In this document: piece after piece, positions 1-51,600 of the stretch
How positions within the stretch are numbered: the first letter of the stretch is position 1
How the letters are laid out: every line of letters starts with the position of its first letter
Assembly: GCA_004431415.1 (NCBI GenBank)
Contig: QPMI01000516.1
Span: forward strand, 1-64,000
Origin: Cyanophora paradoxa CCMP329
Taxonomy: Eukaryota; Plantae; Glaucophyta
Length of the DNA stretch: 64,000 bases
Direction of reading: 5' to 3'
Notes under the pieces: model-generated
Seen by the model: the letters and a program-made list of their open reading frames with translations, nothing else
Told to the model about the DNA's origin: nothing
The model's database searches: none
Program-made: the position numbers and the translations under genes

Positions 1-186
1 TATAGGAGTTATATATCCCCCCTAACCCCCCTAACCCCCCCACATGTATACATTATTACCATTTCTGGTCATAAAACAACCAGAAAGTAAAAAATGAAGG
101 TCCCCCAGAAGGTCCCCCAGACGTCTTGAACCCCCCCCAAAAACCTATCATGAGCCCCCCTAATCCTCCTCCTTTTCCAAGTGGTA

Positions 187-482
187 GGGATGGAGAGAGG
201 GGGATGGGGGGATAGGGGGATGGAGGGATGGGAAACCCATCCCCTTGAACTCGATTAGAAAATTTCAAAAAACAAAAACAAAATTATTTTTCTGAGAAAA
301 GTCCCATCCCCCTGACTGACTCCCATCCCCTACCCATCCCCCTGACTGGCTATGGTCACAAAATCAGCCACCTCCTTCCTTTTTTCCCATCCCCCTACCC
401 ATCCCCCTCCCATCCCCTCCCATCCCCCTACCCATCCCCTCAAACCACTCCTTACCAGACAGTCCCATCCCCTTCCATCCCC
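187..482. repeat. Opposed arrays of GGGATGG / CCATCCCC around palindrome GGGATGGG-AAA-CCCATCCC (225-243)
   Basis: GGGATGG at ~187, 202, 217 and 225; about ten CCATCCCC copies from 304 to 482. Confidence 0.85.
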
Positions 483-542
483 TGACTATTCAAGATATCT
501 CTTTATAGATAAATGGAAAAAATGAGTAGAAGGAGGGCAGTC

Positions 543-3002
543 TTAATCATCTTGAATCAGAATATTCTCTTCCTCTTTGATGCTATCATCATCTTCCAGC
601 TTACATTTCTTGAAGGCAGACATCATATCCTCCCATTTGAAATGATAGTAATTGATGCCTTGGCACTTTTTCACCTCAATAAAGGCTGTATTCCTCATCT
701 CAATATAGAACTTCTTTTGATTCATCTCACACTTGAATTTGGCCTTCTCCTGAAACTCTGCCCACCAAGTCCAAGCACTGATCAGATTTTGTGTCTTACA
801 TTTCTCCTTGGTGACCTTTCCATTGGCTGTTAGCCAGTAGGCAAAGTATTCAATAGGTGAAAGTGTTGCCTGTTGAGCAAGGAAATATTTGGCACTCAAT
901 GGCCTCTCTTTATCCCAATCCACATTGCTGATGTCCACCTGTTTCAGGAACCTGACAATCATGTGGATGTTGTCAGTATTGTCAAGCCAAGCATGAAGTG
1001 GCTTGAAGTACTCAGCATCTCTTTGGTGTTTTGTGCTGCTTTCAAAGAAGGCAAATCGCCTATCTCCAGACTCCACCTTCACAGGATATTACTATTTGTT
1101 GTGAAAACGAAGTGGACACAATTGGGGCTTGTGTAGCTGTCAATGCCTTTGTGTTCAATGGTGATCTTATCATTTGTTATATAATCCTTAAGCTTTCGCT
1201 GTACTCATAGTTATCCTTTGCTTTGGCCTCATTCAATGTCACCATAATTTTATGCTCTTTGTTGTGTGAGAATCTGGAAAATAGGTCATTCTCTCCATCA
1301 CATGTGGAGAAGGCCAATTTGTTGCCCAACACCTTTTTCTCAAAAATGTCCAGCAGTGTATTTTTTCCTGTGCCTTGGACACCCATGAAAACCAAGGCAA
1401 CCCCAATCTTTTCCCCAGGCCTCTGGAGCATATGAGCAAACCATTTCAAGGCATACTCTGTAGCTTTCTCATTCTCCCCACACATTAAACTCAAATGTTT
1501 CAGGAAAGGGCTGATCATCTCATCAGTGATCACATCAGGAATATCACCACATGGAGCATAATCGATTGCCATTCCCTGATAGAGGTTGAAGACACTGGCT
1601 GTTTTACATGGGAGCTTGGCAGGAGGTGGAAGGAACTCCACAAACTCATATCTGGTACTATCTCCATCCTCTATCCACTTCTTGAAGGTACTCTTATATT
1701 TACCATCCCCAGCATCATACTGGATGTGTGGGAAAGTCCCTTTCTTCACTTTTTCAATGTCATGAGGAATCCAAGATTTTTCTTTGTCATTCCACATAAA
1801 CACACACTTTTTATCAGTACAATGGATACACCTGGCATCCAAGTATCGTTTTTGTACCTCATATATATCCCTTGCTGGGATTGGATCCAGTTTGTAGTTG
1901 ACCTTTCCATTTTCTTCCCCCTCCTCATCATCCAAGAATAAGAATCCTGATACTTGGGGTGCTGAAAACATGACCTTGTAAAGTTCTGGATTATCCTGCT
2001 TCAGCCAGGTCCTGAGTGAACCCATTGTGATTTTGCTCCCCTTTCTCTTGCTGTTCCAGATGCTCTCAAAATCTTTGTCAGCCCCATCTTCATCATACTT
2101 GTCCAAGCATTTAGAGCTGAAGTCATGCCACAGTTCTCTGGCCTGTTTCTTTGGGATTTCCATGTCTTTGCTAACATTACAGATGGCATAGCCAACATTG
2201 ACCCATGCCTTTCTATCATCAGCGCGTTTTCCATCCAACCCCATAACAGCCTTTCTAAGAATGTCAAAGCCAGATAAGGTGGGGTTTGATGCCACTATAG
2301 GAGCCTTGAATGGAACAGCCTTGCCCCCCTCCTGAATTTGAAGTAGCTGCGCCCCAGCTTCATAGAACTGGACAAAGTAGTGTTTATAGGGACTCCTTGA
2401 AGGCAGTACATTGCTGGTTTGAAGACCACATCAATATCAACATCATGCTTTTTGGTCCTTTTGTCAAGCCCAGTATCCTTACAATTGTAGATACAGACAA
2501 TATTTTGTGTGGAACTGTATGGCTGAGGATCATAATCATCCCCTCTAACCAGCCCCCAAGAATCAAGTAGCTTTGGGATATCTTCATGCTTCATAACCAG
2601 ATCTGCCCAAATAAAATGGGCAGATTGCTTGAATTTAACCTCTCCTGAATCAACAAGCTTTACCCTTCGATGCCTCACACTAACAGCAATTTTATCCAAG
2701 TCAACCCCTGACAAGGCAGCAAGACGTTTGCGCAAATCCAATACAACTTGAGCAGCTTCTTTTTGGTTGATAGAAGCATCATTCTCGAGAGGGACAAGCC
2801 TGTCAAAGTCCAAATAAACCCTGGTCAGCTGTTCAGGGGTTAAATGCTCGACCCAGTGCTTCCCTTTTTGAATGATACAATTAGCCTCATCCCAGCTCAT
2901 GGAGATGATGCCAGACTTGTCAAAGTTTTGAAGCTGCTTCTTGAAAGTTGCCTCAGTGGGGGCACAAGTAATTTCGGTGGTGGTGAACATGGTGGATGTC
3001 AT
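543..3002 (-). CDS. AEP primase - PriCT-2 - SF3 (D5/DUF5906-like) helicase, split by three single-base frameshifts
   Basis: ORFs 2295-3002 (RVYLDFD and SAHF AEP motifs), 1177-2295 (WVNVGYA...W..FS PriCT-2; GVQGTGKN Walker A; TLNEA Walker B) and 543-1082 (GDRRF). They join if one base is restored at ~2385, ~1195 and ~1090. Confidence 0.85.
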
Positions 3003-3105
3003 TCTACAGTAGGGTGAGAAAATAATTTGATGATTCTATAAGGGCCCTTGTCCTTAAGTAGTTTATAGAATCATTAAATAAAACAATCAATTTTTCGCAA
3101 CCCCC

Positions 3106-3297
3106 TCAATACACCACTGTCCTTGGTCTGCCAACAAGGCACCTCCTTTCATCAAAGAGGTACCTCACACAGGGAAGGGGGTCACCTTTGTAGTATCTGC
3201 TCCTCAGACTATTAAGCTTCATTCTCTCACGGAAAGCAGGATCTTGAGCACGGCGACGAGTCACATAGGCAATTTGAGATGCCGCATGGTATGCCAT
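3106..3297 (-). CDS. Small basic hypothetical protein
   Basis: 63-aa Arg-rich ORF between the divergent helicase and polymerase genes. Confidence 0.45.
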   Translation of the reverse strand: MAYHAASQIAYVTRRRAQDPAFRERMKLNSLRSRYYKGDPLPCVRYLFDERRCLVGRPRTVVY

Positions 3298-3441: not shown

Positions 3442-6400
3442 ATGCCCCGCCCCAGCCACTACCAAATTAAGGAGCTCCAGGACAAGATTCTCGGGAATCT
3501 GGCGTTCTTACTGGCCAATCACTCCATCAGTGAAAGTGAATATGAATCTTATATTAAACAGACCAACAAGAAGCTCAAGGGGCTTCAAGCTCTCAATCGA
3601 GAGCTATTAGGGAAAATCGAGACCCTTGATGAGACTGATCGCCTTGGCCAAATCCAAGTCGAACAAACTACCACAACTCAAGTCAGAGGAGATGAATACA
3701 CTACCTTAATAAATGAACATCGTGCTCTTAATAATAAATACATTGATTTTACCATCAGGGCTCACCACCAGATCCTGACCACTCAAGAGTTTATAGACAC
3801 CTACTCTGAGGAACTCCACACAAGGCTCCAAGATGCCATCAATTCACAGATGTCGATTAAAACTCGCTTTACGTTTGTCTGTCGCTTTTCAAAAGCAAAC
3901 AATTCGAGAGACTTTATTACCAAGCACATTTACAGCACCTATGCTATCATGACAAGATCTCGAACCCTCACTAAAGAAACTGCGAAATTGGCTAAGGAAT
4001 GCCAGTCGCAAATTAATGTCACAGACAGCTATAAACTCCAAAGCATTGAGGCTTTGAGAGTGATTGTTCTGTCCTTTAAACCCATCTCAGGAGGTGCTTT
4101 TATCCCACTCCCAGAGTGGCTCAAAAATAAACGAGCCATTGTCAATGTTAATAACAAGGACAATAGATGCTTTGAGTATGCTATCCTTTCTTATATTCAC
4201 AAGGACGAAGTAAATAGCCACAAGCGCAATGAGACTTCCCAATACAGGAGGTGGTTCAAAAAAGAACTAAATTTCGAGGGCATTGAGTTTCCTGTAAAGG
4301 CAGATGCTGATACTATTGATCTCTTTGAAAATCTCAATCCAGCAATCTCTGTTAATATTTACGACCCCTCTAACTCTACAGAAGAAATTAATCTACTCCA
4401 CAACAGCTCCTCAAGGAACAGGAAACACCAAGTGGATCTGCTGCTAATTACAGACGAAAATGGTAACAGTCATTATACCACAATATTCAGCATGTCCAGA
4501 GTCTTAGCTAAAAATGATAAGCAGCGACTCCATTTCTGTAAAACCTGTTCCAACCACTTCAAGACTGAGGAGAAGCTTCAATCCCACATTCAAAGCAAAC
4601 GTTGTGTGGATTGGAAGACAAGTGCTGGAGAGACCCCAAAACAACCCACATTCATTGAATTTGGTCTTAAACATCTCTCAAAGACTGTATTCCTCCCCGT
4701 GATTGCCTATTGCTATTTCGATTATGAAACAGATATTTCTGGTATGTTCAAGATCAAATCAATCTCACTGACAGCTCTTCATAATAATAGAGTAGTACTC
4801 ACTAAAACCCACTCCAACATCTTTGAGCTCCTGAGTACCCTCGACAGCACAGCCCCAGAGCTATTCAAAGCCCTATTTACCAACATCCCAATGTCACTGA
4901 CCAAAGAGCAGAAACGTACCCATTACCTTGCTAAAACCTGCTACATCTGCCAAGGTGATTTCACCCAAGACAATTATAAAGTGAGGGATCACGACCACCA
5001 AACTGGCGATTTTGTGGGCACAGCATGTCGCAAATGTAATCTCCACAGACGCACCAGCAATCTCACCAAGATTCCCATAGTGACCAATGATCTGTCCCTA
5101 TCTGGAACGCAGATATTCAAGGCAGTCGCCTTAAATCCCGAAAAAAGGGTGGACGTCCTTGCGAAATCATTTGACAACTACATGTCGATCACCTGGGGCT
5201 GTTTCAAATTCATTGACATCAAAAACTTTATTGATTATGGCGTCCAGAACGTGGAACAATTAATGGAAAAGTTCCAGCTTTTCCGCCAGAAATCACACAA
5301 AACTTTTGGGATGGATGCTGCCCACTATGTCTCAAGTCCAGGGCTTTCGTGGGACAGCATGCTATCGATTACCAAGCCCAAAATCGAACTCCTCTCCAAC
5401 CTTGATATGTACAACATGGTTGAAGGCATGATCAGGGGAGGCCTTTCGATTATGAATCATAAATATGCCAAAAAGGAAAGGGACAGCCACATTATATATT
5501 TAGATGCCAATAACCTATATGGTTATGCCCTGTCCCAAAAGCTTCCCCTCTCGAATTTCCAATGGTCCCCAGAACCCTCAAATTACGACCTGTCATCAGC
5601 AGAGGGGGCCATCTTAGAAGTTGACATCCATTATCCCCAGCACCTCCATCAACTCCACAAAGAACTGCCTCTTGTCATCAAGAGAACAGAGGATGGACTA
5701 CAAGCGGCCTGCGAAGACATATACAACTTTGTGGTGTCGAAACCTTTGCTCCAATTCATGGTAGCGCAAGGCTTAAAGGTCACCAAAATCCACAGGGTGC
5801 TAACATTTACTCAGGCTGCCTTTATGAAGCCTTACGTCGAATCCAATGCCCAAAACCGCAGAGCAGCCCCTTCCAAACCCGAAAAGGACTTCTTTAAAAT
5901 CATGAACAATAGCCTTTTCGGCAAAACCATTGAGAAAGTGAGAGGAAGGTCTAATGTCAAGATTGCCACCAACGAAAAGCAATTTATGAAATACGCCAGA
6001 TCGCCCCTACTCAAAGCAGAAACAAGACTAAGCGATTCAGCAGTAGCCTTCGAAATGCTACAGAAAAATGTCAAGTTAGATAAGCCCATAGCAATTGGGG
6101 CAGTTGTTTTAGATCTTGCCAAGCTGCGGCTATTTGATTATTATTATAACACCATCAAGCGGAAATGGCCAGACTGTAAACTGCTTTTTACTGATACAGA
6201 TTCGCTTTGCCTTCAAATAAATTCGAAAACTATAGCAAAAGACCTACAAGACATTGACACCCACCCCACAGAGCTTGGCAAGTTCAAAGATGAGTTTGAG
6301 GGCAGAACCATTATTGAATATGCTGGGGTAAGGCCGAAATGCTACAGCATTAAAACAGATGATGAGGAAATAAAAAAGCTGGCAGGTGTTTGTAAGGAGA

Positions 6401-6537
6401 CCATTCAAACAGATCTGTCTTTCCAAGATTATAAAGACCATGTGCTCCACCAAAAACCCAAGCAAATCGAAATGACTGTCCAAAAGAAGCTTGAAAATGA
6501 GACCTTCAATGTGAAGATGTCAAAGATTGCTTTCTAA
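3442..6537 (+). CDS. polB: Protein-primed family B DNA polymerase (Polinton type) with internal endonuclease-VII-like Zn finger
   Basis: YLDANNLYG, KIMNNSLFGK and FTDTDS polymerase motifs; CYIC...RDHDH..G...C..CN insert; Polinton-like N-terminal NKDNRCFEYAIL. Confidence 0.95.
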   Translation: MPRPSHYQIKELQDKILGNLAFLLANHSISESEYESYIKQTNKKLKGLQALNRELLGKIETLDETDRLGQIQVEQTTTTQVRGDEYTTLINEHRALNNKYIDFTIRAHHQILTTQEFIDTYSEELHTRLQDAINSQMSIKTRFTFVCRFSKANNSRDFITKHIYSTYAIMTRSRTLTKETAKLAKECQSQINVTDSYKLQSIEALRVIVLSFKPISGGAFIPLPEWLKNKRAIVNVNNKDNRCFEYAILSYIHKDEVNSHKRNETSQYRRWFKKELNFEGIEFPVKADADTIDLFENLNPAISVNIYDPSNSTEEINLLHNSSSRNRKHQVDLLLITDENGNSHYTTIFSMSRVLAKNDKQRLHFCKTCSNHFKTEEKLQSHIQSKRCVDWKTSAGETPKQPTFIEFGLKHLSKTVFLPVIAYCYFDYETDISGMFKIKSISLTALHNNRVVLTKTHSNIFELLSTLDSTAPELFKALFTNIPMSLTKEQKRTHYLAKTCYICQGDFTQDNYKVRDHDHQTGDFVGTACRKCNLHRRTSNLTKIPIVTNDLSLSGTQIFKAVALNPEKRVDVLAKSFDNYMSITWGCFKFIDIKNFIDYGVQNVEQLMEKFQLFRQKSHKTFGMDAAHYVSSPGLSWDSMLSITKPKIELLSNLDMYNMVEGMIRGGLSIMNHKYAKKERDSHIIYLDANNLYGYALSQKLPLSNFQWSPEPSNYDLSSAEGAILEVDIHYPQHLHQLHKELPLVIKRTEDGLQAACEDIYNFVVSKPLLQFMVAQGLKVTKIHRVLTFTQAAFMKPYVESNAQNRRAAPSKPEKDFFKIMNNSLFGKTIEKVRGRSNVKIATNEKQFMKYARSPLLKAETRLSDSAVAFEMLQKNVKLDKPIAIGAVVLDLAKLRLFDYYYNTIKRKWPDCKLLFTDTDSLCLQINSKTIAKDLQDIDTHPTELGKFKDEFEGRTIIEYAGVRPKCYSIKTDDEEIKKLAGVCKETIQTDLSFQDYKDHVLHQKPKQIEMTVQKKLENETFNVKMSKIAF

Positions 6538-6548: not shown

Positions 6549-7919
6549 ATGTCATCAAAGATCACACGCAGACAAACAGAGTACGATGTGAGTATATTGC
6601 CAATCCCAATCCCTCAAGAGGAGAGAGGGGGTCGCATTCAGAAAAAGAGTGACCTCAAAGCTTTAGTTCCTGTGGATATCCCAACTGCCATTGCTGTGCC
6701 CCACTTGGATCCCTTAGCAAGGACATTCTATGACACCAAGGTAGGATTTAAAGGCCTTGCTTCATTGGCCAAAGAGCTTCCAGATGTGCCAAGAAAGACA
6801 ATCCGTAGATTCTATGATGCCCAAGAAATCAACCAGATAAATAAACCCCTCCCATCTGCCAAGAAGACTGCCTATATCCCAATAAGACAGCCACTCGACT
6901 GCTATGCCATAGACCTAATCTTTTATCCTTCGTACAGCAAACAGAATCAAGGCTACAACACATTCCTCACAGCTGTAGAAAACACCACCAGACTGGGCTT
7001 TATAATTCCCATGAGGGGAAAGACAGCAGAAAGCACATTGAACGCATTTAAGGAGCTTGAGCAACAAGTCCCTCGTCCAATTGTGAAGATACAAAGTGAT
7101 GCTGGGAGCGAATTCCTGAACAAGGTATTTAAAGACCATTTAGAAACCCAGATGATTGAGCACCAAGTTTCGCAGGTTGGAGATCACAATAGCCAAGGCC
7201 GAATAGAAGCCTTTAATCGCACAATAAAGAAGCTAATTAACTCGTATTGTATAGCGAATAATACTGTAAAGTTTTTCGACAAGCTCCAAGATTTTGCCTA
7301 CAACTACAATAATACCATCCACTCAGCAACGGGGATGAAACCAGCAGAGACCACAGAGGTACATGTTCCTCTAATACTCGGAAAAGAAAACGAGAAATTC
7401 ATGAAGTCAATTGAATATCTAAAAGACTATCCAGCAGGGAGCCACGTGAGAACTAAAATAGAGAAGAGCCCATTTGCCAAACAAGGGAATAATTGGAGCC
7501 GCGAAATATTCACAATAGAAGGAGTGGAGGGGTTCAAATTTAAACTAAGGGACATTTCTGGCAAACTAATAGATCGACTTTATGCCCACTACGAATTACA
7601 GAAAGTGGAAACCGTGGAGTTCTTGGAGGCGCCATCAATAAATGTCATTGAAGAGGCAAAGAAAGAGGCCAGAACAGAGCGACTTTTGGCCAGAGAGGGG
7701 ATTGAGAGGGCTCCAAATGTGCCGGATAAACCTTTATTGGAGGACAGAGCAGGGAAGAAGAAGAAACAAGGGAGAGAGTTGGAAAGATTGAGGGTGGCAG
7801 GGACAGAGAGATTAGCAGGGGGAGCAGAGGCAGTAAGGTGGTATAGAGATTTCTCAAATTCAAAGGAGACCTATGAAGCTCCAGCAATTTCCACGAGATC
7901 AAGGAGGAGGGCAGGATGA
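6549..7919 (+). CDS. Retroviral-like (RVE) DDE integrase, Polinton type
   Basis: YAIDL / IQSDAGSEF / GRIEAFNRTIK catalytic triad; YNNTIHSATGMKP; NWSREIFTI. Confidence 0.93.
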   Translation: MSSKITRRQTEYDVSILPIPIPQEERGGRIQKKSDLKALVPVDIPTAIAVPHLDPLARTFYDTKVGFKGLASLAKELPDVPRKTIRRFYDAQEINQINKPLPSAKKTAYIPIRQPLDCYAIDLIFYPSYSKQNQGYNTFLTAVENTTRLGFIIPMRGKTAESTLNAFKELEQQVPRPIVKIQSDAGSEFLNKVFKDHLETQMIEHQVSQVGDHNSQGRIEAFNRTIKKLINSYCIANNTVKFFDKLQDFAYNYNNTIHSATGMKPAETTEVHVPLILGKENEKFMKSIEYLKDYPAGSHVRTKIEKSPFAKQGNNWSREIFTIEGVEGFKFKLRDISGKLIDRLYAHYELQKVETVEFLEAPSINVIEEAKKEARTERLLAREGIERAPNVPDKPLLEDRAGKKKKQGRELERLRVAGTERLAGGAEAVRWYRDFSNSKETYEAPAISTRSRRRAG

Positions 7920-7966: not shown

Positions 7967-8365
7967 ATGCTTGCCAAAGGTTACCATGTGATGCTTGATT
8001 TCCAATTCAGCCAACCAATCAGCGACCATGTGGAGCTCTCTAAATGGCTCATGAATGTCAGTGAAGACATCATCAAGAAATATGGAATACAGGTTGTCCA
8101 CAAACATGCTGAGATTTTTGATGGCACCAAATCACCCCCTGGATTTGCCCAAGTATTATTATTAGATGAAAGCCATTGCTCTGCTCATTGCTACAGTGAT
8201 CAAGGCATGTTAGCAATAGATATATTCAGCTGTGGAAAACAGGCAGAAAGGAATACAAGTTTAATTGCTTTTGAGCTGGAGGAGGAGATAAACAAATATG
8301 CTGTTGGATTTGGGGCAGTAATTAAAAAGAGATTACACCATGAGAAGAGGAGATTTGAGGTTTAA
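7967..8365 (+). CDS. speD: S-adenosylmethionine decarboxylase proenzyme (short prokaryotic type)
   Basis: GYHVMLDF start, LLDESHCSAH self-cleavage motif, AIDIFSCG. Confidence 0.88.
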   Translation: MLAKGYHVMLDFQFSQPISDHVELSKWLMNVSEDIIKKYGIQVVHKHAEIFDGTKSPPGFAQVLLLDESHCSAHCYSDQGMLAIDIFSCGKQAERNTSLIAFELEEEINKYAVGFGAVIKKRLHHEKRRFEV

Positions 8366-8371: not shown

Positions 8372-8480
8372 GGCAGGAGAGGCAAGAGAGGCAGGAGAGG
8401 CAGGAGGGTTATATGTAAAATCCCACACAAGAGGGGATTCCTTAGGAAAGTTTACAAATAACCCTCCTGCCTCTCCTGCC
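8372..8480. repeat. Four GGCAGGAGA-type 9-mers and a 30-bp inverted repeat (8390-8419 / 8451-8480) with two small hairpins in the loop
   Basis: Arms match with one mismatch; loop contains AATCCC..GGGATT and TTCC-TTA-GGAA. Confidence 0.9.
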
Positions 8481-8603
8481 TAATTGGTGCCGAATCCAAG
8501 CTTCTAATACCCCAGAGGCGGCCAACATACTGGTGCCAAAAAGACATGATTAATACCCTAAGACCTGAAATAAATGCTTACTACCCTAGTACCTGAAACG
8601 CGC

Positions 8604-8678
8604 ACACATAGGGATACCCCTGATCCAAGCCTGTAGGCCGAAGGCCGGAGGGCTTGGATCAGGGGTATCCCTATGTGT
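8604..8678. repeat. Perfect 28-bp inverted repeat at the left boundary of the GC-rich virus
   Basis: ACACATAGGGATACCCCTGATCCAAGCC (8604-8631) and its reverse complement (8651-8678); GGCC-GAA-GGCC in the loop. Confidence 0.95.
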
Positions 8679-9403
8679 TGCGTAACGCGTACATGGGGCC
8701 CACCCTCCGTCTGCGTCGCAGCGACGGAACGGAGACGGATTGGTTCGCAGACGGTGTAGGGTCCCTGAACTCTGCTTACGACAGACGTGGCACGGCCTAC
8801 GCCGCCTGGATCTCGGGGTATACAGCCGCGGTTGTAACACTATACGACCAGAGTGGAAGCAATCGAAATGCAACCCAAAGCGTGGAATCCAGGCAGCCGC
8901 AGTACTCAGGGGGCAGGGCGACCTTTGCATTCAACAATGGAACGTTCCTTGACGTACCCTACTCAGCGGCGCTGAATACGTCGACCTTTTCCTGTGTCTG
9001 TTCATGTCTCTACACAACCTCACAAGCGGAATACAGGTCCCCCCTCACCAACCGTGCATCTGGTGCTTCAAGGTATGGATACATGATCTATCGCACGCCT
9101 ACCTCAACTTGGCAGTACTGGGCGGCTATGCCCAGCAGTTGGAATCAACTCGGAACCACTGCTGCGGTCATCAATACAAAGTTCAAAATTGGGGTCGGGT
9201 ACAATGGGGCCTCGCATTCTATCACGATCAACGGCACAACGCAAACCGTGGCTGGTTCCTATGTCCAGAACTCTACGAATCCCTTCCGCATAGGAGCCAT
9301 ATCGGACGGCACTCCCGGGGGATTCTGGGACGGCTGGGTGGACGACATCATGTGCTTCAACGCGGCCATCGGGGATACGAACGCTGTCCACGCTCTCATG
9401 TAG
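8654..9403 (+). CDS. LamG/concanavalin A-like virion protein, apparently 5'-truncated
   Basis: LRNAYMGPTLRLRRSDG..LYDQSG.NRNATQ N-terminal module; FRIGA..FWDGWVDDIMCFN LamG C-terminus; annotated start is a TTG inside the hairpin arm. Confidence 0.7.
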   Translation: MDQGYPYVLRNAYMGPTLRLRRSDGTETDWFADGVGSLNSAYDRRGTAYAAWISGYTAAVVTLYDQSGSNRNATQSVESRQPQYSGGRATFAFNNGTFLDVPYSAALNTSTFSCVCSCLYTTSQAEYRSPLTNRASGASRYGYMIYRTPTSTWQYWAAMPSSWNQLGTTAAVINTKFKIGVGYNGASHSITINGTTQTVAGSYVQNSTNPFRIGAISDGTPGGFWDGWVDDIMCFNAAIGDTNAVHALM

Positions 9404-9407: not shown

Positions 9408-10244
9408 CTATGCAGCGCAAATCAGCTCCCCCGTCCACATCGTCGGGCTTCCACCGGGCCACGCATACATGGTGCCTGAACTCACGTAGATGCTCACGTT
9501 GGTCCCGGCTGATAGGTATAGGATCGCATTTAGGGTCAGGTACTTTGGTGATGCATCAGTTGTTGCATCGGCGCTTTGGTAAATGTTGATTCCGCCTGGA
9601 TACTGCCCGTTCACATGCAGCTCAACGCCAGCTTCGGCTGTGGTCTTTGATGTCTGCCCCGTGAAGAGAAATCTGTACAGTCCCGTAACGGGGACAACAA
9701 ACTTTCCGGTACTGAAGTCACGAACATCCGGGGCAGAGCGCCCAGACCAGCCACTAAGGAAATCTTTGGTCCATTGTGTTATCTCACCTGGCCCGGAGAA
9801 GCTATCGGCGAGGCCCAAGCAAAACACAGGGCGGTTGGGCGTCTGGACGTTGCCAGTCAGCCTCAGATTGCCGTTCACCCTAAGGCCCCCCACAACATTC
9901 GCCCCTCCCCCCTGCACATACAGCGCCGCGTTCCCCTCCCCATCGGCAGTATTGTTAAAGGTCAGGGCGTTTGTGGTGTACCCGCTCCCGTCCCAGGCCC
10001 CGTTTGTCACCGTGAGCCTCTGCGTCCTCACGCGCCCCGGCACGGCCGATCCGCCCTCCCGCGTGCGCATCTTGTCGCAGCGCAGCTCGCCGACGCGGAC
10101 AAGGTCGGCCTCGGTGAAGGGGACGGCCGTGGCGTTGTAGGGGGCCTCGGTGGCCTGGTTGCCGAGGGTGGTCTCCTTAATCGTGTGATCGCCCTTGTGA
10201 TTCACGCTGGCAGCGTAGGTGAATAGAGGAACAGCAACAGACAT
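9408..10244 (-). CDS. Fibre-like protein with C-terminal C1q/TNF-like domain
   Basis: RPVF...FSTGKFVVPVTGLYRF...ILYLSAGTNVSI...WTGELI is a C1q pattern. Confidence 0.8.
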   Translation of the reverse strand: MSVAVPLFTYAASVNHKGDHTIKETTLGNQATEAPYNATAVPFTEADLVRVGELRCDKMRTREGGSAVPGRVRTQRLTVTNGAWDGSGYTTNALTFNNTADGEGNAALYVQGGGANVVGGLRVNGNLRLTGNVQTPNRPVFCLGLADSFSGPGEITQWTKDFLSGWSGRSAPDVRDFSTGKFVVPVTGLYRFLFTGQTSKTTAEAGVELHVNGQYPGGINIYQSADATTDASPKYLTLNAILYLSAGTNVSIYVSSGTMYAWPGGSPTMWTGELICAA

Positions 10245-10664
10245 TTTTGGATTGCATCAGAAAATCGATTACATAAGCAGCTTGCCGATCGCGGTCCAGT
10301 GAATGAAAAGCTGGACAATTTGGGTGGGTGTGACCGTCATTCTGGGCTGGAATCTCACTTTAACTGTAAAGCCAGTATGACTCACCGCCGTGACGTTGGT
10401 CCCGTAGAAATCGACATCCGTGCTGCCGCCAGGATTGATGTCGAACGAGGGGGTTACGTTAATAACCGGCGTCGGGTTTGCTGGGGTCCCCAATCCGCCT
10501 CCAGTGTCGTACGCCTGTCCGAATGTAATGTTGAACGTCACCGTGTATGTTGAATTGATGTTAAACTCCGTGTACGCAGCGTACGAGTGGAAGGACGTGC
10601 CGTGCGTTATGTACGCATCCATGTTCACGTTTCTGTGCCCGTGGCCGGTGAGCGAGTACTCTGT

Positions 10665-10793
10665 GTGACTGTGTGTAGAGGGGGGGAAGGTGAGAGGCTT
10701 CCCCGTAACTTGAGTTTCCCAGTCCACGTTGTGACTGTGAGTCGAGGGGGGGAAGGTGGCTGGCCTTCCCGTAACTTGAGTTTCCCAGTCCAC
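10665..10793. repeat. Tandem 66-bp coding repeat (VDWETQVTG.P.TFPPSTHSH x2)
   Basis: Near-identical units at 10665 and 10731. Confidence 0.9.
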
Positions 10794-11431
10794 GGTGATG
10801 TTCGACAAGTCGGGGGCCGTCCAGTCGCTGATTTCTGAGATGGTGTGCTGGTGATCTGCGTGGGGGTACGTGCTCGGCTTCCCCGTGATGTTACCCCACG
10901 CCCAAGTTGCTGGAATTGTCGGTATCGTCGGCCTCCCTTTTAGATCTTGGTACTCTCCTGTATGCGCCACGGCCGCCAGCTGCGGTACGGCGACGCCCAC
11001 GGTACTGATGGCCTGACTGGGCCCCGAGGGCACGTGCCACTCGTAGTTCTGCGCCGCAAACACGGGCTGACCGGGCGAGGGTGCCCAGTACTCGACGCCC
11101 TTGGCGATTGTTTTATTGTAGGGTGCCGCCGGTCTGTCCATCAATTTATCGACGTACCCCTTGGGCACGAGCCAGTTGGCCTTGGGGCTCTGCGTCGCCA
11201 CGCCGTTGTCGATGTAGGTGCCGTAATTTCGAAAGGCGCCCGGCTCCCACCACTCCTGCATCTGGAAGCGATCGGGCAGCTCGATGCGCGCGATGGTGCC
11301 GGGGAGGCGCACGATGCGCTTGTTTCCCATGTGGTAATCGCGCTCGTAGATGATCGCGTTGCCTGGCCCGCCGCCGCCGCCGATGGGCGGAAGGGGCAGG
11401 AGGGGCGGAAGGGGTGGGAGGGGCGGGATAG

Positions 11432-34483: not shown

Positions 34484-34936
34484 GCGTCATTTACGTCCGC
34501 GTCATTTACGTCAGCGTCATTTACGTCACGGAGTTTGCCGGCGACTCGGGACCTGGGCCAGGGCCCGGGGAAAAAAATTCGAGACTTGGAAAAATAGGGT
34601 ATCCCTATTATTTATCGTTATTATTATTACTATTATCGTTATTCACATTGAATGAATGCTTAAATCTATAAAAGGTGTACCGGTACCGGTAGCTAGTAGT
34701 ACTGAGCAAGTAGTACTAAGTAGTACAGTAGTAGTACTAAGTAGTACAGTAGTAGTACTAAGTAGTACTACGTAGTACTAGCGGTACTAGTAGCTACTGG
34801 TACTAGCGGTATTAGGGATACCCTATTTTTCCAAGTCTCGAATTTTTTTCCTCGGGCCCTGGCCCAGGTCCCGAGTCGCCGGCAAACTCCGTGACGTAAA
34901 TGACGCTGACGTAAATGACGCGGACGTAAATGACGC
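34484..34936. repeat. 124-bp inverted repeat with a 205-bp AT-rich/AGTACT-repeat spacer (candidate origin or fused termini)
   Basis: Arms 34484-34607 and 34813-34936 with one mismatch; spacer has 21-bp tandem units and the palindrome TAGTACTACGTAGTACTA. Confidence 0.95.
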
Positions 34937-37564: not shown

Positions 37565-40500
37565 TCAGTGGTGCAGGTGCCGGAAGCGCGCCTGGTCCTC
37601 GGCCTCCTCGCGCGCCGCCTGCTCCTCCGCCGCGTCGATCTCCGCCCGCGAGGCCTCCAGCGCCGCGGCCGACGCGTAGTCCTTGAGCACGGGCACGCGC
37701 CGGTAGCTGTAGCCGAGGCCCTTCGCCAGCCCCGCCGACTCCGCCTCGAACGCCCGCCAGCGCTCCGAGGCTTCCGCGCCGGCGATCTGGCCGGCGCGGA
37801 AGCCCGCCTCCAGCTCGGCGCGGAAGGCGAGGGTGCGCTGGAGGCGCTGGGCCCAGAGGCCCTGGCGCCGCTCCTCCGCCTCGCGCGCCTGGCGCGCCGC
37901 CAGCGCCTGCCGCTCGGCCTCCTGCTGGGCCCCGAAGCCCTGGATCGCGGAGAGGACGGCGCCGGGGCCGGGGAGGGGGACGGGGCTGCGGTCGGCGAGG
38001 GAGAAGGGGACGGGGCTGGGGCCGGCGCTGCTGGAGGGGGCGGCCGAGGCCGAGCGCGCACGCGAGCCCAAGGCCGAGCGCGAGCCCGAGCTGCCGTAGC
38101 CGCTGGGGCCGGCGCCGCCGTCCACGGGGCTGCTGCGGAAGCTGCCCGCGGGGGAGGCGCCCTCGCCCTGGCCCGAGGGTCAGGAGGGGGGCGGGGGAAA
38201 GGGGGGTACGGGGAGGGCGCGGGTGCGGGGCCGGACCTGGCGCGGCAGCATCTCGTCGATGCGCTGCTGGCCGGCGTGCTGCTGGGCGGCGGGGGCGAAC
38301 GACGGGGGCGGGGGCGGGACGAAGCCGGGGGCCGAGTTGCGGGCGCGCTTGCCCCTGCCCCTGGTCGAGGCCTTGACGGGGAAGGGGCCGATCTCCGGGT
38401 CCGCCGGCAGGGTGAAGCGGATGGCCTGCAGGGCCGGCTGGCTCGCGCCGAGGGAGAGCGGGGCCTTGGGGACGATGCCGCGGATGTAGGTCTCCCAGAC
38501 GCCGCCGGCCTTGTAGGAGAAGAGGCCGCACTTGGGGCCGAAGGCGGCGATGGTCTCGTCCAGCGCGCCGTTCTCGATGTCGGCGGCGAGGGCGGCGGAG
38601 GCGTCCGGGCCCTCGGTGCGCGAGACGTACTCGCAGATGCCCGCCACGCTCGTCATGCCGCCCTCCGTCTCCGAGCCGACGAGGTAGGTGGTGGGGTCGA
38701 CGACGCAGTGGGTGATGATGAAGCGGGTGAGGGAGCAGGAGGCCGTCTCCTGCCAGAAGGCGAGGCGCTTCTCCCGCAGCCACGCCGGCTCGAAGGCCTG
38801 GATGCACGTCGCCTCGCCGTCGGAGAGCGCGTGGATGATCTTCCAGGCGTAGGTGTAGGCCACCACGTTCAGCGCCGGCAGCTCGTTCTCGCGGATGTCG
38901 GCCTGGAGGTGGGTGCGCTTCTTGAGCGGCTTGTGGTCGAGCGTGATGAGGACGATGCGCGAGAAGAACTCCAGCATGCGGTTCGCGAGCTGCGCGTGGG
39001 AGGGGTGAGAAAGGAAAGGAAAGGAAAAGGAAAGGAGGGGGGCGAACCTGGGGAAAGCCGTTGCAGACGATCACAAGCGACTTGCGCAGGGGCCTGCAGC
39101 GCCGGTCGTTGCCCTTCGCGAACTTGAAGTTGCGAGCGTAGGCGTCGCCCGAGCGCATCTTGAGCTCCTCCTCCGTGCAGGCCTTCGGGTCGAGGCCCTC
39201 CGCCATGATCATGCAGAGCGCCTCCTCGCCGCCGTGCTCCGAGAAGGCCGAGCCCCTGGAGGGGCGGTAGACGCAGATTTGACCCGGCGCGTAGCACTCG
39301 TTCATGATCCCCGTCACCGTCGACTTGCCTGCGCGCGCGGCCGCGGCGTCAGAGAGAAAGGGAAAAGGAAAGGAAAGGAAGGGGGCGCACCGGTGCCAGA
39401 CTGGCCCTTGATGACGCCGCAGTACTGCAGCTGGGCGCCCTCCGCCGGCGCCTCGAACTCCGCGCGCGGCGCACGGTCGAAGACGGGCTTGTCGCAGAAG
39501 TGCCACGGCCCGACGGTGTTGAAGGCGTAGAGGACGGCCGCCGCGTACCCGATCTCGTCCGGCGTCACGTAGCCGTTGTCCGCCAGGTGCTGAGCGCACT
39601 TGGGCATGTGGCCGATGAGCATGGAGAGGACGCGCGGGAAGTCGACGTTCGCCGCCGCCTCCTCGATGCCGTCCGGCAGGCGGCCCTGGATGTAGCAGGT
39701 GTTCATGTAGCCCTTGTACCGCTTCTCCGCCACCTCGTGCGTCATGATGAGGACGCAGGCGTCGCCGTTCTTGTCCTGCGGCGTCCGCACAACGAAATCT
39801 GCGCAAGGGAGGGCATCAGGGGGGTGCCGACCGGGAGGGGTAGGGGGGTACGGGGCGCACGGGAGTCGCAGGCGAAGGGGTGGCCCGGGATGACGGGCAT
39901 CTCGGGGCAGACGTCGTGGAGCAAGAGAGACTTCTCCACGAATCGGCGGATCTCCCCCGTGAGCACCTCCTTGGAGAAGGTGAACTCGAACAACTCGGGC
40001 TTGTCACCGTACGCGGCGTGAAAGGCCATCGCCAGCTTCGAGATCACCTCGTCCATCGTTCCGTTGCCGTCGAACTGCGTTGCGGTGACCTTCTCGTAGA
40101 CGAAGCAGCCCGGCAGCTTCTGCATGAAGACGGGGTCCTCCCCGGGGGCCATCGGCCGCTTGCGTGCGATTCCCTGCGGGCGCGGGCAAAAAGGGCGTTA
40201 GCGGGGCTCGATCCAGGGGAGGGGGGCGCACCGGCCGGAGGCGGCCAGCGCCTTAAGCAGCTGGGCCACGGCCGCCTCCGGCCTCTAAGGGGGCGGGCGC
40301 GCAGTCAAAGGGGCGCACCGACGCAGAAATCCAGGCGCGCAGCGAGTCCTGGATGGCAGCCTTCTTGCGCGCCATGTTGTCGTCCTTGTGCGTCGTCACT
40401 CGTTCGTACCGGCGCGTGTTGATCACCGGCGCCGGGATGACCGTCGCCGCCAGCTCCACCCGCGCCAGCTCCAGCTTGTTCGCGCGCGGCGGCTCGTCGT

Positions 40501-46302: not shown

Positions 46303-46354
46303 GTGTCCGGACCCTCCCTACTTTCTTTATAGATTATTGGAAAGGTCCGGACAC
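46303..46354. terminator. Hairpin with AT-rich loop between convergent genes
   Basis: GTGTCCGGACC ... GGTCCGGACAC abutting the YqaJ stop codon. Confidence 0.5.
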
Positions 46355-47010
46355 TAGAGGAGGGCGTACGACTTAAACTCGCGCAGCGCCGCCTGCTCCT
46401 CGCTGAGGTTCTCTGACTTCATTCGATCGCTGTAGGGCTCGGGCGGCGTGCCCTCCTTGACGTGCATCCAAAATAGATGTAAGCACTTCCTCATGAGCTC
46501 GATGTACCTCTCGTCGCGCCTGACGTACCACGTTTGCACGCGCAGAGGAGTGAAGCAAAAAAGTTCGGCCCACTCGCGGCCCGTGATGTCCAGAAGTCCT
46601 TGTAGTTGGGGCATGTAATAAGTAGGAACTTTATCGTACAGTTCGCCCTTGTACGGGCATTTCACCTCTAAAATTCTATCATTTCCTATAAGTCCGTCGG
46701 GACTACCGGCGAGGAACGGCATTTCTTTATGTTCGTGCAGTCCAGTATGTTTCACGTCCACGTTATTGTTCAGTGCCTTGTAGATAGAGACCGCGAGGGG
46801 CTCATAGTCATGCCCATAGGTTAGGGCAGGGTTGTCAAAGTTGTTTTCCTCCGCTATCCCGCTTAGCTCCGCCCAGAGGCGGGCCCTGGATTTCCAGGGA
46901 TTTATGCCGCACGCAGCCGCAAAGTTCGAGGCAGTTAGCTTTTCGCGGCGCGCCGCGTGCCACGCCGCGCTCCCCTGTTGCAAAGTCTCGCAATCTGTAT
47001 CGGTATGCAT
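46354..47010 (-). CDS. YqaJ/lambda-exonuclease family recombinase (PD-(D/E)XK)
   Basis: QGSAAWHAAR..LTAS, GHDYE, LAGSPDG, LEVKCP, YYMPQLQ. Confidence 0.93.
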   Translation of the reverse strand: MHTDTDCETLQQGSAAWHAARREKLTASNFAAACGINPWKSRARLWAELSGIAEENNFDNPALTYGHDYEPLAVSIYKALNNNVDVKHTGLHEHKEMPFLAGSPDGLIGNDRILEVKCPYKGELYDKVPTYYMPQLQGLLDITGREWAELFCFTPLRVQTWYVRRDERYIELMRKCLHLFWMHVKEGTPPEPYSDRMKSENLSEEQAALREFKSYALL

Positions 47011-47758: not shown

Positions 47759-47795
47759 GGGGTACAGGTATAAATTCTCAGCGAGCCGCGAGCAA

Positions 47796-48521
47796 ATGTC
47801 GTACGGCGATCAGGAAGCATGGTTCAAGCTACACCGCCTCTTTCCTGATAAATTCGGCAATGCGCGCTACCCCCTCAACCTAATGACACGAGTCAACCGG
47901 CGGACCAGGGAATTCAAAATCGAAGTGTTTTCATCGTCCCCCGAGAGCGGCCGCTCCGCGGACAACGACTCCATGGCATGGTTATACGGCTTCGTCCAGC
48001 CTCGCGTCGGCAATAAGCCAGCCACCGTCGAAATAGAAAGCTACTACAACGATTACGGGCCGCAGGGGGGGTACGGGACGCCCGAGCAGAGGGATTCGAT
48101 GCGGGGGGCGGGCAAAATCCTGATGCGGGCCGCTGTAGACGCACTGCAGCGCTCCGGGCTCATTAGCTCGTCGGACCCGGGCGAGCACGCGGTGGAGCTC
48201 AGGGCCCTCCCGGACGCAGTGGAGTACTACGAAAGGGAATTGAGTCTGCGCAAGAGAGACCTCGCCTTTCTCACCTACACACCGTCCCTAACACCCATGG
48301 AGGGTACGGTGCAGAACATCATCGACAACACGTACAACGTGGCCGTTCGCTGGCGCAAAGCGGCGGCGGATCTCGTAAAGGGCAACTACAAGGACCTCGC
48401 AGACGAAGACAACCCCGTGGGGGAGTACATGGAGCTGGCAAGCGGGAGCATCGTACCCCGCCGGAGGCCCCCAAGGCCCGACCCCGACCTCGAGTGGGGA
48501 CCGTCGCACTTCGGCCAGTGA
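47796..48521 (+). CDS. GNAT-like acetyltransferase-fold protein
   Basis: MRGAGKILMRAAV acetyl-CoA loop; VELRA..AVEYYE. Confidence 0.5.
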   Translation: MSYGDQEAWFKLHRLFPDKFGNARYPLNLMTRVNRRTREFKIEVFSSSPESGRSADNDSMAWLYGFVQPRVGNKPATVEIESYYNDYGPQGGYGTPEQRDSMRGAGKILMRAAVDALQRSGLISSSDPGEHAVELRALPDAVEYYERELSLRKRDLAFLTYTPSLTPMEGTVQNIIDNTYNVAVRWRKAAADLVKGNYKDLADEDNPVGEYMELASGSIVPRRRPPRPDPDLEWGPSHFGQ

Positions 48522-48561
48522 GGGGGTACGGGTAGATATTCTCAGCGAGTCGCATTGCTCT

Positions 48562-48653
48562 TGTCCCGGGTCCCTGGAATCTTAATATAAATTTTCCGGG
48601 GACCCGGGACACTCCCGGTCAGACGATTCTTCAATTGGGGGTTCAATTGGGGG
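48562..48653. repeat. 18-bp stem hairpin with TCTTAATATAAATT loop, followed by tandem TTCAATTGGGGG x2
   Basis: Arms 48562-48579 / 48594-48611 (one mismatch); direct repeats 48630-48641 and 48642-48653. Confidence 0.9.
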
Positions 48654-51600
48654 TACAGAATTCAGTTAGAGCCTGAGCCTAGTCAGAGGCCGGGAGGGCC
48701 CCCCTGGGGGTACGTCGGCTGTTACTCCCCGCGTCGGTTAGTGCTAGCCCCCCTGTTAGTGCGGGGCGTACCTGATCGCAATATAACACCCAAACCTCCA
48801 TGACGCGTGACTCATGCAACCTCCGAGGGTTAACAATGCATTGACAGCGAAGGGGCAAGCTCGAGAGCTCGACCTTTGGCAAGAGCCCACCATATATATA
48901 GCTGACCAGCTGGCCCAGTGGATATGGCCATGGATTCCGATTCCGCTGACCAGCCGCTGGCTGGCAGAACCCCAGCGGGTCAGCCTAGCGAGACGGTCAA
49001 GATCTGAATCCGTGAAAGCAAGCCTGGCAAGCTTTAGTCGTCATATGCATATGCATGGTGTTGGACGCGTCGAACCGACTCGAACGCTGCGCGCGCGCGT
49101 GTGCCGGGCCCGCGGCCAGCAGTGCCCAGCACTAGTACTGCGCATGCCGCGAGTGCGCATGCGGCATGCATGCGCATAAAGCTGCATATATGCATGTGCA
49201 TGTGTTTGCGCTGTGCATGTGGCAGCGCGGCCGGCCGTAGTATCAATCCGTCCGTATACGTATACGCTGATCATGAGCCGTCTCCGAGTTTGTAAGCAGC
49301 CTCTGCAACCGCACGCGCGGCGCCCGGCAGCTGCAGCCTCTGTAGCTGGGCCCGCGGCCATGGCCATATGCATGGGCAATTGCAACCGCGGCCTGCCATC
49401 GGTATTGCCATTGCAACCGGTGCCAACCCCGCGCGGCCGGCGTCGGCATTCGCACCTGGACAGACGGCGGCAACACCCGCTACGAGCGCATATGCGCATG
49501 CGTGCGCATCAGGCATCAGGCCCAGATCATCCTTCGACGCGCATAACCTCGCGATCGATAGGAGCAGCGCGTACACACATATATATGGCAGCACCGGCTT
49601 TCCGCATGCTGCGGCCATCGCCTGCCGAGGCGGTGCATGCATGTGGACTAGTACTCGAGCCCGTGATCGGAGCGAGCTCGAGCACGCTCAGAAAGGGCGA
49701 CGCCAGCTTGCTATCCGGCCGCGGCCAGCGCCGGCGCCGGCGCCCGCCTCGAGCTCGCAATCGGATGCGGCAGCCGAGGATTTCGAATTCCGCGGCCGCT
49801 AGTGCTGCATTTCGAATTCGCACGCAGCCGAATCCAGCACGCGCATACGTGCGCGCGGTACTGTCCACCGGCTCCGCGGCCGGCGCCATCGCCGCCTTTC
49901 TCGTAGTGGCAGTTGCCCTCGCGCTGCTCCCGCGGACCCTCGGTCAGGGTACGTTTCTGTACATGTGCCATTAATATTGCTTCCGGATTCGGCCTGCCGC
50001 CCCCTACGTATGCCCATTTGCAATCCCTCCGCCCCTCCAACCTCCTTAAGCTTCCCCTGCCGCCCCCCCCCCTCCCCTCCTTCTCCCCCTGCCCCCTCCC
50101 CTGCCACCCCCCCCCCCCCCCCCCCGCCCCGCACCCCCCCCCCCCCCCCCTTTCGAATTCTTCCAACCATCCATATCCTCCGGCCCCCGCCCCCGCCGGG
50201 CCCCCGGCCCTTCCTTGATCTCCTCTAGACAACGACATGCATTTTACTGATGCAGATCGCTTCCCAACGCATGCGCAGCCGGTCTCGACCCCTCGCCGGA
50301 GGCCTACAGCGTATCGTTCAAAGCGCACACGCCGCCTGCCTTTGGACGCCGCATGAGGGCGGATTTGGTCTTCTTTCGCAACGCGAGCGGAAGCTCCAAA
50401 CTCCTGCTCATCGGCGGGGGCGTCGACGAGGCCTGGGTCTATGATATTGGCGCGTTCTGTTGGCACTTGAACCGAATCCAGCTCAGAAATTAATCATAAC
50501 GCCCGTGCGCAGGCGCTGACCGGTGGGAGCTGACACCCATGAAAGTCCCGGCGGGTTATGGCATCTCTTTGTACGACATCAAATGCATCTGGGATGAGGC
50601 GTCCAAGATATAGTGAAGCATTGTATTTTAATGGTTAGATGCATTACATCCTTCTAATCTTCTCGAAGTTGCACTGGAGCTCGAGGGGGCAGCATTCCTT
50701 TTGGAAACTGCTGGTATTGTTTCGGTATGATTTCTCATGATTAATAAGCAAACTCTATTGCCGTCTAACCTCTTCCCTCGCCTTTTTCTGCATTACCCGG
50801 GTGCAGAGACAGACTCTGGAGACTCAAGAATCCAATCGAGCAATCACTTCTGGTCCTTTCCAACAACGATGGACTTGGCTGGTATAGAAATGCTACCGCA
50901 CTCTATTCCCTTATTCGGCCGCAACGATCACTGTGCGTAGTACGTGCTGGCTCTGTTGCGAATTGAAGTGCAATTGCTACTTAACGATCAGCGATCGCGC
51001 GAGCTTCTGAATCTCCATTTTATATTTCGAAGTGCCAGTTTGCTGAGCTTTAAAACTCTGACGCGTTCCTGCATGCACAGGCCTAACGTATTACAACGGA
51101 AGTATCTATGTGCGTGGCTTTAAACAGACATGGATATATGCATCGATTTGTTTTTCAAATTGACCTACGTGTACTCCGACTCATCGCTCGACATTTGGCG
51201 ACCAGGCCGCTGCAGGAACGGCCGGAGGGGACTGCTATTCATTTTCAGCGTGCCCAAATTTCGAGTCCCTCACATCACAGCCGGGTTCAGGCTACCGAAA
51301 CGATCTCGTCCGGTGCTACGGATCGCGATCGCGATTTCGTCTTATGTCCTCTTATATTTATTGTTTGGAGGGGGACATCCTCGCCCTTCGACAGATACTC
51401 CATCGCAAATCGCATTTGGACTACCGAAATTTCGCTCTGGCAATCGACAATGACGCCACGAAAATTCCCGATATGCGCTCGGAGTGGTGCGTGCTTACAA
51501 ACCGCAACCGTATACTGTGACTGTATTACTGACGCTCGTTAACTCGCATCGCCCGAGCAGGCAGTCGATTTTATATCGCAGCCGGCTTAAACCTAAATAC

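Follow-up and report, generated by a model that had tools for sequence, protein, structure and literature searches.

A multi-copy Polinton-type element adjoins a mriyavirus-like provirus in the genome of Cyanophora paradoxa

Organization of the locus

The first 64,000 nucleotides of contig QPMI01000516.1 (forward strand; assembly GCA_004431415.1) of the glaucophyte alga Cyanophora paradoxa CCMP329, hereafter the window, were found to contain three compartments: first an AT-richer element (1–8678), next a virus of higher GC content (8679 to ~48750), and last host DNA rich in introns. The GC content was 0.41–0.45 over nucleotides 1–8000 whereas it was 0.54–0.76 over nucleotides 9000–49000. A preliminary description of the window had read the first two compartments as a two-part system, in which a capsid-less element with a polymerase and an integrase was joined to a virus that lacked both. 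In our study, a Pfam profile search took in 56 proteins of the window, and short-read contigs of three DNA runs (X1, X3, and X8) were mapped onto it; the depth of such a contig is not a copy number. The features found are listed in Table 1.

Table 1. Features of the element, the virus, and their junction, with the evidence for each (pPolB, protein-primed DNA polymerase; RVE, retrovirus-like; ORF, open reading frame; MCP, major capsid protein).
Position	Strand	Feature	Evidence or remark
1..540	.	Non-coding C/G-rich stretch of the element	Left terminus of the element lies outside the window
543..3002	-	Primase (AEP-like)-PriCT2-SF3 helicase	Pfam PriCT_2 E 3.6e-11, DUF5906 E 1.8e-4
3106..3297	-	Small basic ORF, 63 aa	TTTCT not found upstream
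3442..6537	+	Polinton-type pPolB with endonuclease VII insert	Endonuclease_7 match; TATA box at -48
6549..7919	+	RVE integrase, open frame	Pfam rve E 1.3e-5, below curated cut-off
7967..8365	+	SpeD/AdoMetDC-family protein	Pfam AdoMet_dc E 1.1e-11; strict W-TTTCT at -18
8389..8481	.	Subterminal hairpin, 31-nt arms	Sequence
8530..8678	.	Multi-copy terminal repeat, tip a 28-bp perfect hairpin (8604-8678)	Contig depth
8678..8679	.	Element-virus junction	X1 and X3 contigs 8653-9948, 0 differences
8693..9403	+	Leftmost viral ORF	PHROG virion structural protein E 4.9e-5; without W-TTTCT
9408..10244	-	C1q-domain virion protein, N-terminus conserved, C-terminus variable	Pfam C1q
10269..16140	-	Long fibre-like gene, split by insertion and frameshift	PHROG tail matches
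11405..12304	-	900-bp insertion, 27-38-nt direct repeat, Cys/His zinc-finger ORF	X3 contig joins 11404 to 12305
18061..20040	-	HUH_long-like protein, C-terminal HUH domain	His-hydrophobic-His and YxxK motifs
20058..20899	-	HUH endonuclease, short form; frame broken once in the window	Motifs alone
21120..21947	+	VLTF3 late transcription factor, frameshifted in the window	Pox_VLTF3 matches and zinc ribbon
22705..23775	-	A32-like packaging ATPase	Pox_A32 E 1.1e-4, 22.2 bits against a cut-off of 22.8
23813..24289	+	RuvC-like (A22) Holliday junction resolvase	Pox_A22 E 6.8e-8
27942..29324	+	MCP, nucleocytovirus type	Capsid_N E 2.5e-7, above cut-off
30912..31715	+	DUF5767 protein, 22-member cluster	Pfam
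31769..32551	-	Conserved 260-aa protein, 22-member cluster	Clustering
34484..34936	.	Inverted repeat, arms of 124-127 bp on either side of an AT-rich spacer; each arm with three 15-bp TGACGT-type repeats	Sequence
38180..40231	-	Intron-containing P-loop gene, likely SF3 helicase	62-nt GT-AG intron (39329-39390) interrupts Walker A
46354..47010	-	YqaJ/PDDEXK nuclease	Pfam YqaJ E 7.3e-29
47796..48750	+	Last viral gene (47796-48521), then hairpin 48562-48611; host-like composition from ~48.75 kb	Sequence

Genes and termini of the element

The four large genes named in the preliminary description (pPolB, RVE integrase, primase-helicase, and SpeD) were recovered as Pfam or homologue matches, and the AT-richer composition was borne out. 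The pPolB had 3382 homologues, the best of which (P0001, 48%) carried PF03175, and the DDE region of the integrase was conserved with P0155. The element thus contained the pair of pPolB and RVE integrase that is a trait of Polintons/Mavericks. The Tlr1-like fusion of pPolB with an SF1 helicase, a trait of transpovirons, was not found; the pPolB was of the Polinton type and the primase-SF3 gene was separate. The AEP label of the primase is our assumption from its motifs. Three frameshifts in the primase gene are assembly errors, the contigs of all three DNA runs containing one extra base at 1083, 1193, and 2388, respectively; hence the assembly of the window, when set against the short-read contigs, holds uncorrected indels. 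The presence of a SpeD-family decarboxylase on a Polinton-type element was a pairing not found in the titles and abstract beginnings of the literature searched.

No MCP, packaging ATPase, or protease was found by Pfam in nucleotides 1–8678, and the left end of the element lies outside the window. No inverted copy of the stretch 8340–8720 was present anywhere in the window; the second copy of the terminal repeat lies beyond it, so the element is incomplete here and the term capsid-less, as applied in the preliminary description, holds for the visible part. Searches of a viral contig collection with the pPolB, an alignment of pPolB, the MCP, the leftmost viral ORF, and the ATPase as queries gave no related loci. 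The integrase alignment had no match among metagenome contigs, and the pattern of the element terminus had 0 matches. The element proteins were absent as exact sequences from the protein collection, and no proteome-named homologue was present among the pPolB and integrase matches listed.

The summed contig depth at nucleotide 8591, in the terminal repeat, was 2535 in X1 and 163 in X8, as against 1295 and 59, respectively, on SpeD. The ratio was 2.0–2.8 ends per element body, as is expected for a terminal repeat. The repeat was of high depth throughout 8530–8678, with several different inner continuations among the X1 and X8 contigs on 8200–8900. One high-depth contig linked the region 479–505 to nucleotide 8387 via a diverged stretch, bypassing all genes of the element, which suggests ends-only derivatives or the opposite end of other copies. 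The depth of the primase was ~1/4 to 1/3 of that of the pPolB-integrase region; this lower depth, together with the gene-skipping contig, suggests that the element family is modular.

Junction of the element and the virus

The preliminary description had left a gap of ~120 bp between the element and the virus. No such gap was found: the hairpin 8604–8678 lies within the high-depth repeat, which ends sharply at 8678, and therefore belongs to the element. The junction falls at 8678/8679, and the first viral ATG, at 8693, is 14 nt past it. The contigs that cross the junction covered 26 letters on the element side, which is below the 31-letter rule for bridging, and ~1270 nt on the virus side. One X8 contig (1677 nt) departed at 8678 into unlike, GC-rich DNA.

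The depth of the terminus was compared with that of the junction contigs. The ratio was 2535/173 in X1 and 163/10.4 in X8, i.e., ~15 in both as a rough ratio, whereas the ratio of SpeD depth to junction depth was 7.5 (X1), 8.7 (X3), and 5.7 (X8). By this rough measure the majority of element ends lie away from this viral gene; the ratio says nothing of what lies next to them. Taken as a check on linkage, the depth leans against a pairing of the element with the virus, with ends outnumbering the junction ~15:1 in two runs and one end leading into different DNA. No contig was mapped on 8359–8386, a hole that proves nothing as some records were filtered, and the contig on 8387–8568 ran upstream into sequence like 479–550 and not into SpeD. 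The link from SpeD to the terminus therefore rests on the assembly.

A copy of the terminus was looked for to the right of the virus and in the remainder of the window and was not found; the virus therefore does not lie within a composite transposon. No 5–6-bp duplication of the bases that follow the junction was present in 48400–49300. The reading frame of the leftmost viral ORF was open upstream through the junction, and the ORF was possibly cut at its 5′ end by the element. This ORF had no phage, plasmid, PDB, or Pfam match, and its AlphaFold model had a pLDDT of 31; we presume that it starts inside a known beta-domain.

Class of the virus and its copies in Cyanophora paradoxa

The capsid and packaging genes claimed for the virus were supported by the Capsid_N and Pox_A32 matches. 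No polymerase or integrase was matched by Pfam or PHROG among the viral ORFs scanned, the region 41–46 kb holding unassigned intron-split genes, and no VLTF2 was matched by Pfam among them. The virus spanned ~40 kb, which is within the mriyavirus range of 35–45 kb, and its true left end may lie beyond the element. It was found to contain the mriyavirus traits MCP, A32, VLTF3, two adjacent HUH paralogues, RuvC-like resolvase, and PDDEXK nuclease. The HUH_long protein was paralogous to the short HUH endonuclease (E 2e-7). HUH motifs II and III were as described in the available text of PMC11253617, the likeness being at the level of motifs. The three frame pieces of VLTF3 matched Pox_VLTF3 at 54–102, 109–134, and 140–168, respectively, each under the whole-protein cut-off. 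The P-loop gene at 38180–40231 had no profile match, and its helicase label was read from the sequence. By its gene content the virus is mriyavirus-like and matches the gamadvirus branch; it would be a new member of the Mriyaviricetes, and the adjoining element resembles modules already described.

Mriyaviruses are without DNA polymerase and RNA polymerase in the available text of PMC11253617, and integration genes are absent from them in that of bioRxiv 2026.06.19.733378. The missing polymerase and integrase are thus family traits and give no sign of a partner element, and the virus carries a replication set of its own (HUH, HUH_long, and a likely helicase). The argument from complementarity, on which the preliminary description had leaned, therefore fails.

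All 15 homologues found for the MCP belonged to the C. paradoxa proteome, with 41–95% identity for the 14 long matches. Beyond the seven strongest, the MCP matches had E values of 1.3e-10 or weaker, and the MCP was distant from everything outside this one proteome. Its homologue P0122 gave Atlas feature matches with a recognition score under the threshold, and the AlphaFold model of the MCP had a pLDDT of 36.5. The MCP homologues and cluster members were present on 30 named contigs, and the gene order from the C1q gene to the gene at 47796 was the same on the five contigs compared, as judged by gene numbers. Endogenous Mriyaviricetes regions in a glaucophyte have already been reported (bioRxiv 2025.04.19.649669, available text). 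The supplement of PMC10120064, as far as available, counts 366 MCP hits in this species, 272 in one group and 94 in another, and its six example MCP sequences looked unlike the present MCP by eye; other sources of capsids for the element hence exist.

The W-TTTCT start motif

In the first list of viral starts, W-TTTCT was found 5–40 nt before 26 of the 42 starts (shuffle mean 1.8), which agrees with the more than 25 viral cases noted earlier. Four of the 42 starts had been chosen after the motif list was seen; the unbiased list, which drops these four and adds the ATPase start, gave 22 of 39 (shuffle mean 1.4, maximum 7 in 1000). A role as terminator was rejected, the motif following none of the 12 gene ends chosen as convergent or last, one of which (22328) in fact has a same-strand ORF after it. 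The presence of the motif at divergent starts and its absence after all 12 ends show that it marks starts. It preceded structural and packaging genes and was missing from the intron-bearing block, where some of the listed starts may be exons; because of this distribution, W-TTTCT fits a candidate late promoter of the virus.

In the element, strict W-TTTCT was found before two of the five starts (shuffle P 0.035), the fifth start being that of the small ORF. The site at ~6530, one of three claimed earlier, has a C in place of A/T before TTTCT and overlaps the last codons of pPolB, and the pPolB start has a variant of the motif. TATA boxes were present at -59 of the primase and -48 of pPolB, i.e., in two of the five element genes vs one of the 39 viral starts. 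In the 15-kb host flank, the motif was found before 4 of 459 ATGs, a count over all ATGs that is no test of true host starts. As mriyaviruses are predicted to depend on host polymerase II, the virus and the element could have converged on a host-type pyrimidine-rich initiator.

The minus-strand starts at 32946 and 33528, which lie beside the viral inverted repeat, were without W-TTTCT and were pyrimidine-rich upstream, with one TATA-like box; the two are candidate early genes. The divergent pairs 47010–47061 and 23775–23813 each share one short AT-rich site, and either strand of 47030–47045 reads as W-TTTCT or a variant of it. Before the last viral gene lies a 29-bp promoter stretch (47757–47785) that recurs after the stop of this gene (48521–48549), with no gene following.

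The viral inverted repeat

The inverted repeat at 34484–34936 is a candidate origin or early enhancer. We take its TGACGT repeats to be of the ATF/CRE type. A third, partial copy was present at 33634–33734. The idea that the repeat represents fused genome ends was set aside, as, by gene numbers, the repeat is internal in at least two other copies. It may be a fixed opening site on a circular genome.

Relationship between the element and the virus

With moderate confidence, we favour the insertion of a multi-copy Polinton-type element near the left end of the provirus by its own integrase, with no obligate link between the two. From the gene content, the position of the junction, the multi-copy depth, and the motif statistics, we infer how the insertion occurred, the order of the events, and the function of the motif as a promoter. 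The element would integrate via its DDE integrase and would be copied by protein-primed synthesis from its hairpin-tipped terminal repeats. The virus would replicate as other mriyaviruses, with HUH nucleases, a helicase, and the host polymerase, and its transcription would depend on host RNA polymerase II together with VLTF3, at start sites rich in T. The proviral DNA may be a tolerated landing site, because a LINE-like insertion adjoins, splitting the fibre gene 2.7 kb from the junction; its empty site was seen in an X3 contig (11404 joined to 12305) from a related copy. The shared TTTCT would be a start-site sequence, presumably initiator-like, used by both and not proof of dependence. The sharp stop at 8678 and the second end that leaves there into unlike DNA argue for such an insertion. 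So do the ~15:1 excess of termini over junction contigs, the MCP relatives on 30 named contigs with two further viral genes in 22-member clusters, the lack of an element end to the right of the virus, the TATA boxes of two element genes vs one viral start, and the fact that mriyaviruses normally have neither polymerase nor integrase. The absence of the motif from the leftmost viral ORF and its frame, open through the junction, are as expected if the element landed in the 5′ part of that ORF. Tandem and nested integration of transpoviron-like modules with pPolB and DDE integrase has been described (bioRxiv 2026.10.13.758929, available text).

Several observations weigh against this insertion without obligate link. 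No empty site for the element was seen in the contigs, and further copies of the virus could lie against the remaining element ends, only one other flank (X8) being displayed. With the motif relaxed to TTTCT, a step taken after looking, three of the five element starts were preceded by it (P 0.004 by shuffle, 0.007 vs other ATGs), so that the earlier claim of three element genes stands in the relaxed form and for two genes in the strict form. A matrix built from 33 viral sites gave the four large genes of the element high ranks relative to 329 other ATGs (combined P 7e-4); against the own non-coding windows of the element the same matrix was weaker (0.02, 0.13, 0.27, and 0.04 for the four genes). 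When the 149-bp terminus was compared with the 40-kb virus, no exact match exceeded 12 bp; this longest one lies at the inner end of one arm of the viral inverted repeat, and the other arm shares 11 bp with the terminal hairpin of the element. Shuffled termini matched the 453-bp target of the inverted repeat in 0.3% of 20000 trials (P 0.003), whereas they matched anywhere in the virus in 35%; as the target was chosen after the match was seen, the signal is a lead only. As a lead it is the best new argument for a different reading, in which the element family is a capsid-less, transpoviron-like satellite of the mriyavirus, with late promoters, mimicry of terminal signals, sharing of capsids, and occasional insertion into the helper. 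We consider this rather unlikely. The common start motif and the common 12-bp signal speak for it, as do the ~2–3 ends per element body and the gene-skipping 479–505/8387 contigs, which point to a modular family sharing termini. In the available texts, transpovirons integrate into helper genomes and carry helper promoters, and transpoviron-like elements have been reported with a prefix that, according to PMC10120064, denotes this alga. These points are offset by the strict motif at only two of the five element genes, two of the genes having TATA boxes, by the full replication and integration set of the element, whose left end is outside the window, and by the ~1/15 of element ends that touches this viral gene; any of the 366 other MCP hits in the species could package the element instead. 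Of the two-part system first proposed, the direct junction and the shared start motif stand, whereas the complementarity does not; the second shared signal, a lead only, came to light in our study.

The preliminary description had also allowed that the element supplied the integrase that endogenised the virus; if this occurred in cis, the two would form a composite unit, as in Teratorn. The direct contact of an integrase-bearing terminus with an integrase-less virus fits this, and so does the occurrence of the virus family as endogenous copies on 30 named contigs, the present copy having yielded no integrase; it is nevertheless very improbable, as no element terminus bounds the virus on the right, the virus copies appear to outnumber the element bodies, and the junction lies at the start of a viral gene and not at a recognisable viral terminus. 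It is improbable, too, that the long-read assembly joined a wrong element body or neighbour across the repeated terminus and that the virus abuts, e.g., an ends-only copy. The uncorrected indels, the lack of a contig on 8359–8386, the continuation of the 8387–8568 contig into 479–505-like sequence and not SpeD, and the lack of a contig spanning the junction by 31 letters on both sides are compatible with such a misjoin. The adjacency is, however, supported by contigs of two runs that start 26 nt inside the terminus and reach 1270 nt into the virus with no difference, and the filtering of some records deprives the coverage hole of its weight. We regard as unlikely the widest claim, that this is the first mriyavirus satellite: a linear replicon, integrating and without a capsid, that would share its helper's late promoter and a 12-bp origin-flanking signal, ride in helper capsids, and lend its RVE integrase in trans, which would help to explain dozens of colinear integrase-less proviruses in one alga. 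If the satellite reading is true, pairs of helper and satellite would be found not just among giant viruses but also among nuclear viruses of 40 kb. In the titles, abstract beginnings, and passages of the literature searched, a satellite of a mriyavirus was not described, most subscription papers and the bioRxiv supplements lying beyond that search.

Comparison with known systems

The comparisons below hold for the available texts of the papers cited. Among the Mriyaviricetes, the Gamadviridae (Pleurochrysis endemic viruses; PMC11253617) resemble the virus in their ~40 kb, MCP, A32, VLTF3, RuvC, PDDEXK-type nuclease, and adjacent HUH and HUH_long genes, and in that DNA and RNA polymerases were not found. 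Unlike them, the present virus is endogenous and multi-copy, its MCP is distant, its helicase block has introns, it has a promoter motif, and VLTF2 was not found by Pfam. The main text of PMC11253617 contains 0 occurrences of “intron”, “promoter”, and “integrat”. The endogenous Mriyaviricetes of a Glaucocystophyceae assembly (bioRxiv 2025.04.19.649669) are alike in being glaucophyte mriyavirus-type proviruses with few mobility genes, and their insertion was taken by those authors to be largely accidental. That text does not describe a neighbouring pPolB/RVE element, colinear copies, or a promoter motif, although its figure 5f and supplements may show more. The division of genes in the punuivirus into intron-bearing and late-promoter ones resembles the arrangement here, where the candidate introns fall in the 38–45 kb block that lacks W-TTTCT.

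The element resembles the transpoviron-like pPolB and DDE modules (bioRxiv 2026.10.13.758929) in its integrase, AEP gene, bracketing repeats, and tandem or into-virus integration; those modules are capsid-less and stand beside Polisuviricotina genomes, not mriyaviruses, and that text has 0 occurrences of “mriya”. The transpovirons of mimivirids and of pacmanvirus (PMC11161782, PMC11788076) are a further parallel, being small linear elements with terminal inverted repeats, some with promoters of the helper and able to integrate into its genome. They encode a fusion of pPolB with an SF1 helicase, whereas the element has a Polinton-type pPolB, a separate primase-SF3, an RVE integrase, and SpeD. 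In Mavirus/EMALE and CroV (PMC10945749), an element with RVE and pPolB has promoters matching the late motif of its helper. Mavirus, in contrast, has its own capsid and its helper its own transcription machinery, whereas the mriyavirus is predicted to depend on the nuclear host polymerase; the shared motif is therefore weaker evidence of dependence here than in Mavirus/CroV. In Teratorn (PMC10175614), too, a transposon (piggyBac) is joined to a large DNA virus (herpesvirus), but in the present locus no second element terminus encloses the virus.

Under the ordinary reading as well, the locus offers a mriyavirus with a candidate late promoter, a candidate origin, and replication genes that contain introns, which are undiscussed in the main text of PMC11253617. 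It represents a provirus family that occurs on 30 named contigs of a probably culturable alga; its gene order is conserved wherever a comparison was possible, and this copy yielded no integrase. The late transcription of polymerase-less nucleocytoviruses on host polymerase and the entry of integrase-less mriyaviruses into genomes are both testable in it.

Other features of the window

The C1q gene belonged to a 10-member cluster that matches over the first 88–127 residues, and P0253 (1643 aa) matched both ends of the fibre gene. The product of 31769–32551 may, from its resemblance, be a single-stranded DNA-binding protein. The 900-bp insertion had no Pfam match and is presumably a 5′-truncated long interspersed nuclear element (LINE). 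A presumed RNA run had high depth near the 3′ end of this LINE-like fragment; the few low-depth contigs of the presumed RNA run X15 were not used as evidence of expression. No Rfam match was obtained.

Seven candidate GT-AG introns of 58–79 nt, pyrimidine-rich and all beginning with GTGCG, were found in 37986–45002, all of them in the 38–45 kb block. The stretch 9973–10850 (fibre tip and start of the C1q gene) had a depth that exceeded that of the adjoining 8653–9948 contig 30–70 times in X1 and 190–300 times in X8, which suggests pieces common to a far more abundant element family or differing between cultures. Two CCCCTAA units, telomere-like but degenerate, were present at 18–40, where the window begins. 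The host compartment contained, at 50200–61300, a gene with many short introns, which by eye reads as a long extracellular repeat region followed by a transmembrane stretch and a protein-kinase-like end.

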